Assembly: GCA_963716425.1 (NCBI GenBank)
Contig: OY970310.1
Coordinates: 1,606,807-1,670,806, forward strand
Length of the DNA: 64,000 bases
From: Candidatus Babeliales bacterium
GTDB lineage: Bacteria > Babelota > Babeliae > Babelales > JBFXEV01
Reading direction: 5' to 3'
The notes below the pieces were generated by a model. That model was given only the letters and a program-made list of their open reading frames with translations. It made no database searches and had not been told where the DNA came from. This document shows, piece by piece, positions 57,295 to 63,902 of this stretch (position 1 is its first letter; every line of letters begins with the position of its first letter). Made by a program: the position numbers and the translations under genes.

Positions 57295-58053
57295 ATGAAA
57301 AGCATGACTAACCTGATTTTCTCATGTGTCATCTCCCTCACTCTTAGTAACGCGCATGGCACGCTTAATGCCATGGAGAAATTTCGCTCATCACCATTAA
57401 AACGCTCAAGGGTTGAAAATGGTGCGCAAGTTGTTCCTTCAAAAGTAGATTATATAGCTGCTCTTGACGCAGCGCTTTTAACGGTTGATGATGATGGTAC
57501 CACGGTGTTGCATGCGGCAGCGGGTGATGGCAATCTTGTAATGTGCCGTGACCTCTTGGCGCGGGGTGCAAGCCCGTTGTGGCAAAATAAATTAGGCCTA
57601 TCGCCAATGCATTGTGCAGTAGCCGGTAATCATTATGAAGTAGTGCAGCAACTTCTTGATGGTATCCCAAACGGAGCAAAGTGTGAGCGAGTAGTTGCGA
57701 CATTGTGTATACTGCGACGCTATCACATTCCACTGGACCTTAGACTAACAGTACTTTCATATCTGCCTGATCTTATTGCCGCATATCCTGGGCTATGCAA
57801 GCGATTAGTTCCAAACTATATTACTGAAGAGCAATTACGTAGTGCACACTACGCTTCTCAAGTAAAACTTCTTAAACTGCAAGACAAAGAAGGCCGTTCA
57901 GCTTATAGCATTGCAAAAAATAATAGAAATGGTTTTATGGCACGCATGACCAATCCTTCAAATAGAATGGCAGCATGTAAAGAAAAAATCACTCACTTGT
58001 TAGAAGATACTACTCCTGCTGACTCAAAAGAAAATAAAGAATCATCATTATGA
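57295..58053 (+). CDS. Leader-bearing ANK protein with F-box-like module (array member 1)
   Basis: Leader ...LTLSNAHGTLNAM|EK. ANK: GTTVLHAAAGDGNLVMCRDLLARGASPLWQNKLGLSPMHCAVAGNHYEVVQQLL. F-box-like: VVATLCILRRYHIPLDLRLTVLSYLPDLI. Confidence 0.75.
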   Translation: MKSMTNLIFSCVISLTLSNAHGTLNAMEKFRSSPLKRSRVENGAQVVPSKVDYIAALDAALLTVDDDGTTVLHAAAGDGNLVMCRDLLARGASPLWQNKLGLSPMHCAVAGNHYEVVQQLLDGIPNGAKCERVVATLCILRRYHIPLDLRLTVLSYLPDLIAAYPGLCKRLVPNYITEEQLRSAHYASQVKLLKLQDKEGRSAYSIAKNNRNGFMARMTNPSNRMAACKEKITHLLEDTTPADSKENKESSL

Positions 58054-59060
58054 AACAATTAGCCTTCGCATTATTACTTTGTATTTCTTCATGCAAACTC
58101 ATGTGCATGGAATCTTTAGCAAAAAAAGATACAACTACTACACAAGATATAATAACCTGTTTAAAAGCATGTAGATTAGGCGATCTCTCTACTGTACAAA
58201 CTATGCATCAAAAGGGGGTACAATTAGATAAACCTCTTGGCCCTCCCTTTGTAGAATATGGCTATGAAGGTTCTTCATTCTTGCTGTGGTCAGTGCGCCA
58301 TCCTGATTTGGTAACATTTCTTTTAAAATATGCCCCTGCACATGCTCCCGATGATGAGCAGCATACGCCACTGGCTGAAGCAATATGTCATGTGCAACCA
58401 AGAACGGTTGTGCTATTATTAGAACATGGGGCTAAACCGGCTTATACTGATCTTTCACTCAATAGTTCTTTGCATGAAGTAGCACGCAGTGCAGGCCAGG
58501 GATTTTTAGGAGTCGATTTGCCACCTCAAGAAAAAATGAGGCGTGCATGTGGGATCATTCACCTACTCAAAACAAAAAATGCACCTTTATTTTTGCAAAA
58601 TAGGGCACTGGATACACCATTCCATTTGGCTGCTCCATCAAAAGATCATGATATTATGGTGAGTTTATTGTTGCCTGCAGAGTCAGCACAATTAAAGGCT
58701 GATGCTCGTGCGCGATTTTTTACGTTTCTTTGCGTAAATAAACGACTTGCAAACGTGCAGGATAAAATGCTAGAATTACCAAAGGAACTCGTACATGGAA
58801 TATTTTCATATATGCCTATTGAATGTACCTACGCACGGATAGATGGTATAAGGGCAGATGTTTCAAACTTTATTGAAGAACTATATTCTCTTTCTTTTGA
58901 AGATAAAATAGTTCTTATTAATAGAGTATTAGTAGATGTTGATCGCAATATGTTACTGCAAACTCTTCAAACGCCAAATGTACGCGGGCTGACACCAATG
59001 CAACTTGCAACCGATCAAAATGTAAAGAAATTGTTTGACCCAGAGACCTGGAAAAAATAA
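58050..59060 (+). CDS. Leader-bearing ANK protein with F-box-like module (array member 2)
   Basis: Leader MKQLAFALLLCISSCKLMCM|ES. FFTFLCVNKRLANVQDKMLELPKELVHGIFSYMPIECTY. Tail TDQNVKKLFDPETWKK. ATGA overlap with member 1. Confidence 0.8.
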   Translation: MKQLAFALLLCISSCKLMCMESLAKKDTTTTQDIITCLKACRLGDLSTVQTMHQKGVQLDKPLGPPFVEYGYEGSSFLLWSVRHPDLVTFLLKYAPAHAPDDEQHTPLAEAICHVQPRTVVLLLEHGAKPAYTDLSLNSSLHEVARSAGQGFLGVDLPPQEKMRRACGIIHLLKTKNAPLFLQNRALDTPFHLAAPSKDHDIMVSLLLPAESAQLKADARARFFTFLCVNKRLANVQDKMLELPKELVHGIFSYMPIECTYARIDGIRADVSNFIEELYSLSFEDKIVLINRVLVDVDRNMLLQTLQTPNVRGLTPMQLATDQNVKKLFDPETWKK

Positions 59061-59063
59061 TTA

Positions 59064-62691: not shown

Positions 62692-62777
62692 TTTCTGCTT
62701 GCATTCTCAACGTATGTACGATTATTCCTTCGTGTGCTAGACTACCAAGTAGGGTACTAGCGCATGAAGGGATAGTC

Positions 62778-63902
62778 ATGATTAAAAGAGTAGTTATTGT
62801 AGCAATGATAGTGCCTATTATGGCATATGGCATGGATTTGCATCATAAAAAGCGTTCGGTGGAAGAGGCACTTGATAGCGGCACGGTATTAAAAAAACGT
62901 CTCATCAGCACCGAAGTGCTCCAACAATTTGAAGCTGCAGTAGCCCAACATAATATTGCAGGTGCCCGTCAAGTACTTATAGACAATCACTATCAACCAA
63001 AACACCTAAGTCTCAGTGAAGCAATTCGAGTGGAAGCTTTGCCAGATTTCATACATTGGCTGGGAGCTCAGCGCAATGCACATCCTGAGGATGACAGTTT
63101 CTCTACCGCATTGCATACGGCAACCGCCTATGGTAATACTTTTTTTATGCAACTGTTATTGTATACGGGTGCTGAGGTAAATGGACGCAATGCGGGAGGC
63201 TGGACGCCACTCCATTTTGCAGTATGGCATGGTCGAACTGCTGCCATGGTATTTCTTCTTGATAATGGTGCAGATACGAGTGCAAAAATCGTGAACGAAC
63301 ATACGCCACTCTATAACATTATTCGTTACTATAATTTAGATCATCATGGATTTCCCAATCCATTTGTGAAAACACTCATTATGCAATTTATTTCTCATGC
63401 CCAATTTAATCCACACAAAACGTTAGCCCAGAAAGCTGCAAGTCGAGACAGAAGAATGGCATTCTTGCTTTCATTACAACGGAACAATGCTCGGTTGCCA
63501 GTGGATATTCGCAGGAAGATAGCTGCTTATTTGCCTGAAGATATTAATTCACATCCATTGTTTTGCGCATTATTTTCTCACATAGAACATGATAGCCAAG
63601 TCCTTACATCTTGGGTGGAATATTGTCCATTTGCTTGTTTTAAAGCAGCGTGTGCTGCCAAAAATACTCCGCTAAAACGGCAACTTTGTATTAACACTTT
63701 GGCGCCCATGATTGTTGCATATCGCACGCGCAAGCTCCCAGAACTGTTACCTGCATTGGAACCTGCACAGCAACTGTATCCAGGAACTCAAGGCCCTCAA
63801 GCTGTTGCTTTGCAATGTATTGAAGAAGCAATAGAAGGGAATCTCATTCTTAAAACAGTGATTGATATCCTTAATGCGCCATCATCTATAGCCACTCAAT
63901 AA
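62778..63902 (+). CDS. Leader-bearing ANK protein with F-box-like module (array member 6, most diverged)
   Basis: The start is taken at the internal MIKRVVIVAMIVPIMAYGM|DL; the ORF track starts at TTG 62679. STALHTATAYGNTFFMQLLLYTGAEVNGRNAGGWTPLHFAVWHGRTAAMVFLLDNGADT; MAFLLSLQRNNARLPVDIRRKIAAYLPEDI. Confidence 0.75.
   Translation: MIKRVVIVAMIVPIMAYGMDLHHKKRSVEEALDSGTVLKKRLISTEVLQQFEAAVAQHNIAGARQVLIDNHYQPKHLSLSEAIRVEALPDFIHWLGAQRNAHPEDDSFSTALHTATAYGNTFFMQLLLYTGAEVNGRNAGGWTPLHFAVWHGRTAAMVFLLDNGADTSAKIVNEHTPLYNIIRYYNLDHHGFPNPFVKTLIMQFISHAQFNPHKTLAQKAASRDRRMAFLLSLQRNNARLPVDIRRKIAAYLPEDINSHPLFCALFSHIEHDSQVLTSWVEYCPFACFKAACAAKNTPLKRQLCINTLAPMIVAYRTRKLPELLPALEPAQQLYPGTQGPQAVALQCIEEAIEGNLILKTVIDILNAPSSIATQ

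Follow-up and report, generated by a model that had tools for sequence, protein, structure and literature searches.

The F-boxes of eukaryotic proteins such as Skp2, Fbw7 and beta-TrCP (Pfam PF00646/PF12937) contact Skp1 mostly through their first helix and the loop that precedes it. Legionella pneumophila AnkB carries its F-box at the N terminus; in this effector of an amoeba parasite, ankyrin (ANK) repeats are joined to an F-box that binds host Skp1 (PDB 5k35). Poxvirus ANK/PRANC proteins, encoded as many paralogues per genome, combine N-terminal ANK repeats, a non-ANK helical linker and an LPxE-type helix. Orientia tsutsugamushi, which is obligately intracellular and encodes many ANK paralogues, has Ank effectors with a C-terminal F-box/PRANC; these are type-1-secretion substrates. 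In these effectors, an F-box-like motif downstream of the repeats recruits Skp1 and Cul1 (PMC4148323, PMC11895443). In the cowpox protein CP77 the F-box is reduced to helix 1 and binds Skp1 with helix 1 only, and helix 1 with its preceding loop can suffice for Skp1 binding (PMC4353913). In ASB proteins, ANK repeats precede the SOCS box, a small helical module that recruits a ligase.

Members of the Dependentiae are obligate parasites of protists. The cultivated Chromulinavorax destructans encodes 98 ANK proteins, and effector-like genes account for more than 10% of its proteome. Signal peptides occur on 78% of the ANK proteins of this species (PMC6561590). Here we describe an array of six head-to-tail ANK genes (57295-63902, all on the + strand in the ORF list) directly 3' of dnaN-recF on a Babeliales (Dependentiae/TM6) chromosome. 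The window, that is, the whole stretch of 64,000 nucleotides that was analysed, also encodes recA, infC and other housekeeping genes. The most closely related genome is a Candidatus Babeliales MAG.

The array proteins resemble the poxvirus proteins, CP77 in particular, in their N-terminal ANK repeats, helical linker, LPxE-type helix and number of paralogues. With the Orientia effectors they share an origin in an obligate intracellular bacterium and many ANK paralogues, and with AnkB the pairing of ANK repeats with an F-box-like element, putatively for host Skp1. However, whereas the Orientia proteins match PRANC/F-box models, the C-terminal tails of the Babeliales proteins do not; the two groups belong to different phyla, and the Babeliales proteins bear N-terminal, putative Sec leaders, unlike both the Orientia and the poxvirus proteins. 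The PRANC model (PF09372) had no match at E ≤ 1 in the nine full-length tail proteins of the window or in 32 family tails, and none at E ≤ 10 in the nine window tails. AnkB has a canonical F-box, detected over profile positions 1-41 (E 2.1e-4), compared with only positions ~2-19 in the Babeliales tails. Relative to eukaryotic F-boxes, the tails agree at ~8 of 13 positions of the helix-1 pattern L-P-x-[DE]-h-x-x-x-I-h-S-x-L, but have no detectable helices 2-3 (VCKxW), an extra upstream helix, H0, and a large downstream extension.

Gene array and tail family

Proteins of this family have a leader, then 2-6 ANK repeats, then an all-alpha C-terminal domain of ~110-150 aa. This tail starts with the conserved helix H0 (R-x4-L-x4-R), followed by a variable loop and by the most conserved element of the family, the LP helix (h-P-x-[DE]-h-x-x-x-[ILV]-h-[SA]-x-[LM]-P); behind it lie 80-110 further residues of family-specific helical domain, ending in a DP..h..LLDP motif. 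H0 and the LP helix are given as the core in the features of the array:

57078..57108, + strand: terminator-like hairpin (13-bp stem and T-run) after recF, which sets recF apart from the array
57220..57247, + strand: promoter-like site TTGACA-16-TATGCT, 48 nt upstream of A1; a consensus match only
57295..58053, + strand: A1, 252 aa, leader-ANK-tail, a subfamily of its own; core at aa 131-161 (DNA 57685-57777)
58050..59060, + strand: A2, 336 aa, leader-ANK-tail; core at aa 220-259 (DNA 58707-58826); terminal motif DQNVKKLFDPETW at 58980-59051
59064..60281, + strand: A3, 405 aa, leader-ANK-tail, its tail being the AlphaFold2 query; core at aa 282-321 (DNA 59907-60026); terminal motif at 60192-60263
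60260..61426, + strand: A4, 388 aa from GTG 60260, leader-ANK-tail, overlapping A3 by 22 nt; core at aa 272-306 (DNA 61073-61177); terminal motif at 61331-61399
61453..62691, + strand: A5, 412 aa, leader-ANK-tail; core at aa 283-322 (DNA 62299-62418); terminal motif at 62617-62685
62499-62571: perfect 36-bp tandem duplication within A5
62778..63902, + strand: A6, 374 aa, leader-ANK-tail; core at aa 223-256 (DNA 63444-63545), of the LPVDIRRKIAAYLPEDI type, which recurs in the family members that are most distant

The gaps from A1 to A6 are -4, +3, -22, +26 and +86 nt. This reproduces the range given in the first-pass annotation (-4 to 86 nt) except between A3 and A4, where -22 presupposes that A4 starts at GTG 60260; this is the sole A4 start that yields a leader, and from the first ATG (60320) the gap would be +38. 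The ATG start of A6 is backed by orthologues (P0008/L005). Promoter-like sites are no more numerous in the region than expected from shuffled sequence. No strong + strand terminator was found inside the array, which, together with the promoter-like site and the tight spacing, suggests that the six genes form a single transcription unit.

To delimit the family, we built a leave-out HMM from eight distant members outside the window and scanned 268 window ORFs. The top nine, spanning E 8e-21 to 8e-3, were A6 (8e-21), A3 (1.8e-10), A2 (6e-9), A4 (6.3e-9), A1 (1.9e-6), C2 (7.6e-4), C1 (1.3e-3), A5 and, in ninth place, B1 (7.9e-3), with the tenth-ranked ORF at 0.034. These are exactly the nine genes that the first-pass annotation had picked out, including the three outside the array, indicating that the nine tails are real and belong to one family. 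The copies elsewhere in the window are:

53128..54018, - strand: B1, separate leader-ANK-tail gene, 296 aa; core at 53422-53517
2567..4117, - strand: C1, leader-ANK-tail gene, 516 aa; C-terminal core at 2819-2914
3203-3304, - strand: second, internal copy of H0 and LP helix in C1
2654-2704, - strand: terminal DPEKIEQ motif of C1
5243..5959, - strand: C2, leader-ANK-tail gene, 238 aa; core at 5513-5608
4207..5262, - strand: C3, leader-ANK gene ending in a truncated module (H0 and LP helix only, 4291-4392)

C3 shares 54% identity with C1 over the first 328 aa of the latter. As it scores only E 0.28-0.62 against the core HMM, we list it tentatively as a possible tenth, partial member. The family is tiny and restricted to Babeliales: across 1.84 billion cluster representatives, 30 match it at E ≤ 1e-3. 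C2 is identical to one database protein (P0001), and the representative of B1's cluster at 50% identity (P0006) differs from B1 at only a few positions.

Pfam ANK models (Ank/Ank_2) score above their curated cut-offs in B1 and every array member, with whole-protein E values of 1e-8 to 1e-19 for the best models in the array. A hydropathy heuristic finds a hydrophobic N-terminal leader ending in [A/C/G/S]-M-[polar] in all nine proteins (in A4 only from the GTG start). The module itself can also be internal, as in C1, or stand alone after a leader, as in P0030. Paralogy over the full length is limited to A2-A5 (24-31% identity). When the HMM is made from these four tails only, A1, A6, B1, C1 and C2 are scarcely picked up, and identity to the A3 tail ranges from 13 to 38%. 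The proposed architecture of leader, ANK repeats and shared C-terminal module holds, but what had been described as a conserved ~110-aa module is thus a divergent family rather than a near-identical cassette.

In related genomes the array is conserved, with turnover. Orthologues were found for A1 (L004 2797-3549, 65% identity), A2 (L004 3551-4531, 57%), A5 (L004 7465-8721, 66%; L003 2161-3384, 60%; L005, 67%) and A6 (L004 8837-9919, 77%; L005 905-2005, 71%; L003 3447-4607, 36%). The dN/dS check proposed at first pass gave 0.15-0.38 in orthologue pairs, and purifying selection acts on both protein halves. Among the A2-A5 paralogues the LP-helix region is best conserved (73-82% nucleotide identity versus 41-47% overall), with synonymous differences present. 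Orthologue pairs show no higher conservation in the tail than in the ANK part; for A2, identity is 28% in the core versus 68% in the ANK part.

Likeness to F-box helix 1

Within the LP helix, the proline is conserved in 29 of 32 family tails, the D/E in all 32, a hydrophobic residue (I/L/V/C) at +9 in all 32 and S/A at +11 in 28. H0, which has no F-box counterpart, matches the LP helix in degree of conservation. The A6-like group has its own conserved CPxxW. The second conserved motif noted at first pass ([DN]P..h..LL[DN]P) is real and was also found in C1, C2 and distant members.

Searches with Pfam gave matches to F-box-like in 3, F-box in 2 and F-box-like_2 in 1 of the 32 tails (best E 1.6e-4), F-box-like and F-box being the sole families matched by more than one tail. 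None of the 32 reached a gathering threshold: the best F-box-like match (P0012) scored 21.8 bits against 24.3, and the best F-box match 15.8 against 20.5. In the window, A2 matched F-box (12.8 bits, E 0.12, helix 1 only) and A5 matched F-box-like (12.7 bits, E 0.11); the other seven tails gave nothing at E ≤ 10 with F-box-type models. These F-box and F-box-like matches span only profile positions ~1-18 of 43-47.

Profile-profile comparison gave a clearer signal. With hhalign, the tail profile aligned to the F-box profile over 15-19 columns with a score of 30.1 (probability 78%, P 1.8e-5), compared with a mean of 8.5 (sd 1.9, maximum 15.6) in 200 column shuffles, and three subfamilies reproduced the helix-1 alignment independently. 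The F-box profile was validated on the PDB, where it detects 54 F-box chains, Legionella AnkB among them. Matches by Pfam, HMM and hhalign all stop at profile position ~16-25; helices 2-3 (the VCKxW part) were undetectable in the tails, and a forced global alignment added no score. The F-box similarity claimed at first pass therefore stands for helix 1 (LPxE[LV]xxxIFSx[ML]) but not for a canonical F-box. The shuffle control leaves room for convergence, and a short LPx[DE] amphipathic helix motif could be convergent.

An AlphaFold2 model of the A3 tail (pLDDT 89.6) is all-helical and has only two very short helices, of 6 and 4 residues, after helix 1, which speaks against a three-helix F-box bundle. 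Foldseek found no neighbour of this model, and no F-box, in the PDB; in BFVD the best E value was 5.5 and no poxvirus protein appeared, a result that is not strong negative evidence because Foldseek is weak on small helical motifs. Judged from this model, the tail is a previously undescribed helical domain whose confidently predicted fold has no structural counterpart in PDB or BFVD.

Putative function and alternative readings

We tentatively favour, at somewhat under an even chance, a reading of the array proteins as secreted effectors whose lineage-specific tail carries a putative minimal, CP77-like one-helix F-box recruiting host Skp1/SCF, based on sequence and on analogy with the systems above. 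The proteins would leave the intracellular parasite for the protist that it infects, where the ANK stack would bind host proteins and the LP helix, serving as a minimal one-helix F-box, would occupy the Skp1 groove. This would bring ANK-bound host proteins to a Cul1 ubiquitin ligase or else titrate host SCF, with the remaining tail acting as a lineage-specific scaffold. The array would be a long-standing group of paralogues with slow turnover and differing ANK specificities. An invariant host target predicts a tail better conserved than the ANK part, so the orthologue comparison counts against SCF recruitment.

A lineage-specific helical domain with no SCF role, in which the likeness to F-box helix 1 reflects convergence on a proline-capped amphipathic helix, is almost as likely. 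Such a domain might cap or extend the ANK stack, oligomerise, target host membranes or organelles, or aid export. Consistent with this are the small number of F-box columns aligned (15-19), a domain three times the size of an F-box with elements of its own (H0 R/L/R, CPxxW in the A6-like group, DP..LLDP), a fold without a neighbour in PDB or BFVD, a tail that evolves at least as fast as the ANK part, and the internal or solitary placement of the module in C1 and P0030. However, the helix-1 match lies far above the shuffled controls and recurs in three subfamilies, ANK repeats with a downstream LPxE helix are a recurrent SCF-hijacking effector architecture in poxviruses and Orientia, and no positive evidence points to any of the other functions.

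A further gene bears on the possible link to ubiquitin ligases:

51429..52955, + strand: protein with a leader, a Skp1-like domain and seven WD40 repeats, 4.3 kb upstream of the array and adjoining B1

Its labelling as Skp1-like at first pass was borne out by a Skp1_POZ match above the curated cut-off (E 8.8e-10), together with WD40 matches, and by a phmmer alignment to human Skp1 residues 3-151 (E ~1e-11); the same hydropathy heuristic gives it a leader of the kind found in the tail proteins. With a leader-bearing Skp1-like-WD40 protein near the array, the organism appears to aim at the cullin-RING machinery.

This protein could be part of a larger bacterial, Sec-exported toolkit for rebuilding SCF substrate receptors within protist hosts, in which the Skp1-WD40 fusion would supply its own Skp1 and the ANK tails would supply only a Skp1-docking helix, able to dock on host Skp1 or on the bacterial Skp1-like protein. 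The tail would then be a new Babeliales-lineage domain with a one-helix F-box evolved or captured independently of PRANC. We consider this combination unlikely. It is distinctly improbable that the tails dock on the bacterium's own secreted Skp1-like-WD40 protein rather than host Skp1, forming a two-part adaptor into host Cul1. The alignment to ~residue 150 implies that the F-box-binding region keeps H5-H6 and some of H7, the leader is of the same kind, and the gene adjoins B1 and lies 4.3 kb from the array; yet the Pfam Skp1 C-terminal domain (PF01466) was undetected at E ≤ 0.01, and H8 is replaced by a WD40 propeller, itself already a substrate-binding domain.

Very improbable is membership of the tails in the three-helix F-box or poxvirus-type PRANC families, as the title of the first-pass annotation implied. 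Beyond the helix-1 similarity and the N-terminal position of the ANK repeats, as in PRANC proteins, this reading meets missed gathering thresholds in 32 of 32 tails, no PRANC match at E ≤ 1, helices 2-3 missing from every alignment, an LP motif internal to the tail rather than at the extreme C-terminus as in PRANC, and Foldseek searches without an F-box or poxvirus match. Finally, we rejected the scarcely credible reading of the tail as an ASB-like SOCS box recruiting Elongin B/C-Cul5 (H0 as BC box, LPxLP as Cul5 box), for which ANK repeats followed by a C-terminal box and a superficial likeness (LxxFLC in H0, LPSLP in A3) are outweighed by an hhalign probability of 1.6% (score 14.3, inside the shuffled F-box-profile range, maximum 15.6), with a profile validated by its recovery of SOCS1-4 and ASB7/9 in the PDB, and by the lack of a Pfam SOCS_box match at E ≤ 1 in all 32 tails.

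Secreted ANK proteins take up a large share of the small genomes of Dependentiae, and the tail domain provides a concrete, testable handle on a subset of them. If, as we tentatively favour, the tail recruits SCF, ANK repeats and a minimal F-box would have come together once more, this time in a phylum distant from Legionella, Orientia and the poxviruses, which would support the idea that a single helix can suffice for Skp1 capture. Failing that, the family would still add a new domain whose fold is predicted with confidence and lacks structural neighbours. Further leads into how these parasites sort and deploy their effectors come from the conserved Met at the leader end and from the Skp1-WD40 fusion.

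A tail shared by nine ankyrin-repeat proteins

The plus-strand array of six genes proposed in the first-pass annotation is present at 57295-63902, and further genes of the window encode related proteins.

57295-58053 (+): A1, array gene
58050-59060 (+): A2, array gene
59064-60281 (+): A3, array gene
60260-61426 (+): A4, array gene
61453-62691 (+): A5, array gene
62778-63902 (+): A6, array gene
53128-54018 (-): B1, leader-ANK-tail gene
2567-4117 (-): C1, leader-ANK-tail gene, with a second, internal module copy (H0+LP, weak score) at 3203-3304
5243-5959 (-): C2, leader-ANK-tail gene
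4207-5262 (-): C3, ending in a truncated module copy (weak score)

The expected ANK repeats were found in all six array proteins, each scoring above the curated threshold of one or more Pfam ANK models, and a hydropathy heuristic finds a hydrophobic N-terminal leader in all six. A2-A5 are full-length paralogues (24-31% identity). An HMM of their tails, the C-terminal helical domains, gave weak matches or none to the remaining proposed members, so that at first the tail seemed only partly shared. The question was settled by an exhaustive profile search across 1.84 billion cluster representatives, which returned only 30 proteins at E ≤ 1e-3. Distant members mix features of different tail subfamilies: P0022 joins an A6-type LPADLQKLIISFLPEDI to an A3-type DPDVKKLLDP, and P0024 an A6-type core to a C1-type DPEILSLLDPETIEQH. 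The nine tails counted originally were recovered exactly by an HMM built solely from eight distant non-window proteins, so that the test was not circular. Scanned against 268 window ORFs, it ranked A6, A3, A2, A4, A1, C2, C1, A5 and B1 first, in that order (E 8e-21 to 8e-3; next ORF 0.034).

The family is small and apparently restricted to Babeliales. Among species-representative genomes, the tail alignment of A2-A5 matched a single locus, in Candidatus Babeliales MAG JBFXEV010000001.1, and the C2 product is identical to a database protein that also occurs in metagenomes. Word-indexed homology searches gave no match with the A3 tail and only three (P0001, P0016 and P0032) with tail alignments. 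Profile searches of the PDB with the two tail alignments found nothing significant, NCBIfam gave no recurrent match to the tails, and no description of the family was found in the literature searched.

Column counts from a 32-sequence alignment divide the tail into five elements: a first helix, H0, with conserved R (25/32), L (27/32) and R (27/32); a variable loop, 0-10 residues long; the core, or LP helix, h-P(29/32)-x-[DE](32/32)-h-x-x-x-[ILVC](32/32)-h-[SA](28/32)-x-[LM]-P(25/32); a variable helical region, where A6-like tails have a CPxxW motif; and, in most members, a terminal DP..h..LLDP motif. With this alignment, AlphaFold2 modelled the A3 tail confidently as all-helical (mean pLDDT 89.6, pTM 0.63; helices at residues 6-23, 38-45, 49-54, 58-61, 68-103, 113-116, 120-125 and 128-131); a run on nine sequences was unreliable (pLDDT 62). 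P0029 (318 aa; positions 36-992 of a metagenome contig) has two ANK units, each followed by MDWYG..CR.RL..FLLVEK.L...(L/F)PR.LR..IL.Y, that is, by H0 and the LP core without the remaining tail, which suggests that this core may exist as an independent unit.

Two other readings of these elements were tested. H0 plus LPxLP as a SOCS box (ASB) was rejected, with an hhalign probability of 1.6% and no Pfam match. The idea that the terminal N..GkTA.elA.DP.vk.LLDP is a degenerate ANK repeat capping the C-terminus found no support: it gave a non-significant alignment to a DARPin C-cap (E 3.2-3.8) and an hhalign probability of 0.5% against an ANK profile made from window repeats.

Genomic setting and layout

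The window is bacterial chromosome. Its other genes include recA, infC, RNase Y, miaA, carD, a SurA-like PPIase and proS, and the array follows two replication genes:

54622-55749: dnaN, directly upstream of the array, before recF
55755-56837: recF, directly upstream of the array
57078-57108: strong terminator-like hairpin, 3' of recF
57220-57247: promoter-like site, 5' of A1

No strong plus-strand terminator was found inside the array, which, from this terminator and promoter layout, may plausibly be one transcription unit. Its spacings of -4, +3, -22 (or +38), +26 and +86 nt agree with the range of -4 to 86 nt reported initially, except for the -22. Orthologues back the A6 start at ATG 62778, and the A4 leader is present only from GTG 60260, a start that overlaps A3.

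Babeliales (Dependentiae/TM6) live as obligate parasites inside protists and have ANK-rich genomes; among the ANK proteins of Chromulinavorax destructans, a cultivated member of the Dependentiae, 78% have signal peptides (PMC6561590, PMC4776705, PMC4378268). About 19 ORFs in these 64 kb have ANK matches or belong to ANK families, a very high density, and they are interspersed among housekeeping genes. Cumulative GC skew climbs steadily to ~54 kb and is flat from dnaN on. Two genes encode tyrosine recombinases of the phage-integrase family, at 36277-37206 (-) and 48118-49125 (+); the latter, whose SAM-like N-terminal domains resemble those of XerC/D, sits just 5' of the ANK gene 49196-50233.

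In the ANK and effector-like proteins the leader closes with [A/C/G/S]-Met-[polar residue], as in ..LMC/ME, ..AYG/MD and ..LNA/ME. The pattern is seen in A1-A6, B1, C2, 1113-2447, 8513-9685, 9708-10934, 21612-22433, 24581-25303, 33552-34496, 49196-50233, 50236-51291, 51429-52955 and 54008-54442, and in relatives (P0007-P0030). This Met may act in sorting or mark an alternative, internal start. Leader ends of the classical AxA type, lacking Met, are found in 27384-28571, 29335-30300, 30321-31121 and 38833-40356. Two neighbouring leader-bearing proteins, 27384-28571 (-) and 29335-30312 (-), contain NADAR domains (E 4e-30 and 3e-22), a family linked to ADP-ribose and ADP-ribosylation processing; they are possibly additional secreted effectors.

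Evolution of the array

Three related genomes keep the array, with turnover.

Array members in related genomes, in gene order (percentages in brackets)
L004 (GCA_964479415.1): dnaN-recF-A1'(65%)-A2'(57%)-A4-like(36%)-another member-GntR-A5'(66%)-A6'(77%)
L005: A5'(67%)-A6'(71%)
L003, Babeliales MAG (1-6381): recF-A5'(60%)-A6'(36%) only

At either end of the array the members are stable orthologues; turnover falls in the middle. The two middle members of L004 have only ~30-36% identity to any window member, and a GntR-family regulator gene (L004 6750-7433) lies between its fourth and fifth ANK genes. Nei-Gojobori dN/dS for orthologue pairs is 0.15-0.38, in ANK parts and tails alike (approximate values, with dS of 0.6-1.6); the array genes are under purifying selection.

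Among the A2-A5 paralogues the LP-helix core is best conserved, with best 15-codon windows of 73-82% nucleotide identity against 41-47% overall. These windows carry synonymous differences, and they point to selection on the peptide and not to recent gene conversion. A perfect 36-bp tandem duplication in A5 (62499-62571 (+); 2.0 copies, 100% match) places LADLKKHSWHTV twice in the tail; the A5 orthologues in L004 and L003 have a single copy of the unit, which makes the insertion recent and in-frame. C1 resembles a C3-type protein in its N-terminal half (54% identity) and a C2-type protein in its C-terminal half (46%), and thus contains the H0+LP module twice. On the chromosome C2 and C3 have the reverse order of these halves, each with its own leader. 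The arrangement points to domain shuffling in which neighbouring ANK genes fused or split.

Likeness to the F-box and the Skp1 reading

The tails had been described as F-box-like and PRANC-style. No PRANC match was found in the full-length proteins or 32 tails (E ≤ 1) or in the nine window tails (E ≤ 10), and the second description is not supported. The first holds for a single helix. Full-length window proteins matched only ANK models in Pfam; of the nine tails searched alone, A2 matched F-box (E 0.12) and A5 F-box-like (E 0.11), over 15-17 residues each. Across the 32 tails, F-box-like (3/32) and F-box (2/32) were the only families matched more than once, with F-box-like_2 at 1/32; the best match (E 1.6e-4, 21.8 bits) covered positions 1-16 of 47 and lay below the 24.3-bit cut-off. 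We also built an F-box profile from 16 sequences and validated it against the PDB, where it retrieved 54 distinct sequences at E ≤ 1e-3, overwhelmingly named F-box proteins and including Legionella AnkB. Aligned to it by hhalign, the tail family scored 30.1 (probability 78%, P 1.8e-5) over 15-19 columns, pairing tail LPxDVxxxIxSxmP with F-box LPxEvllxIxsxL; 200 column shuffles of the F-box alignment averaged 8.5 (sd 1.9, maximum 15.6), and a reversed profile scored 8.2. The alignment recurred in the A2-A5-like (78%), A6-like (54%) and A1-like (45%) subfamilies and was not reproduced in the C-like group; forcing a longer one left the score unchanged. By these comparisons, the likeness to F-box helix 1 is real at the motif level, and membership of the F-box or PRANC families is not indicated.

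Two candidates for F-box helix 3 were rejected. C2-type H0 (SCRRW) resembles F-box VCKRW; H0 as a circularly permuted helix 3 gave a probability of only 2.9%. Taking the CPxxW of A6-like tails for a helix 3 in a displaced position brought no score gain in global or low-MAC hhalign.

Poxviral F-boxes have only two of the three helices, contacts to Skp1 come mostly from helix 1 together with the loop that leads into it, and cowpox CP77 binds Skp1 through helix 1 alone (PMC4353913), so a motif confined to helix 1 is compatible with F-box-like working. The context points the same way: ANK repeats followed by an LPxE helix, many paralogues, an intracellular parasite of eukaryotes and a Skp1-like neighbour. 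That neighbour, 51429-52955 (+), consists of a leader, a near-complete Skp1-like domain (Skp1_POZ E 8.8e-10; aligned to human Skp1 residues 3-151) and seven directly fused WD40 repeats. It could be an F-box-less, single-chain 'Skp1 + substrate receptor' able to plug into host Cul1, and we know of no described equivalent. Its LPKDIRNSII was considered as an F-box helix in cis, but it pairs with the FNIKNDFT region of Skp1 itself.

We tentatively prefer the reading that secreted effectors engage Skp1/SCF through a candidate minimal F-box-like helix. That the tails serve a function unrelated to Skp1/SCF, with a convergent F-box-like motif, is nearly as likely. Orthologues do not preserve the tail better than the ANK part, and in A2 the H0-LP core (58707-58826) is only 28% identical to its orthologue (L004 3551-4531), against 68% for the ANK part, which counts against a module tied to a host protein that does not vary. 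The dS of this pair is 1.63 in the tail and 0.61 in the ANK part, and the A2 core resembles its neighbours A3-A5 instead (GIFS[HY]MPIECTY); a partial conversion long ago, or faster divergence in one of the lineages, could account for it. Docking on the bacterial Skp1-like protein and membership of the F-box or PRANC families together share what probability remains. The array is best filed, tentatively, under the known 'ANK + F-box-like' effector theme, here carried on a new domain.
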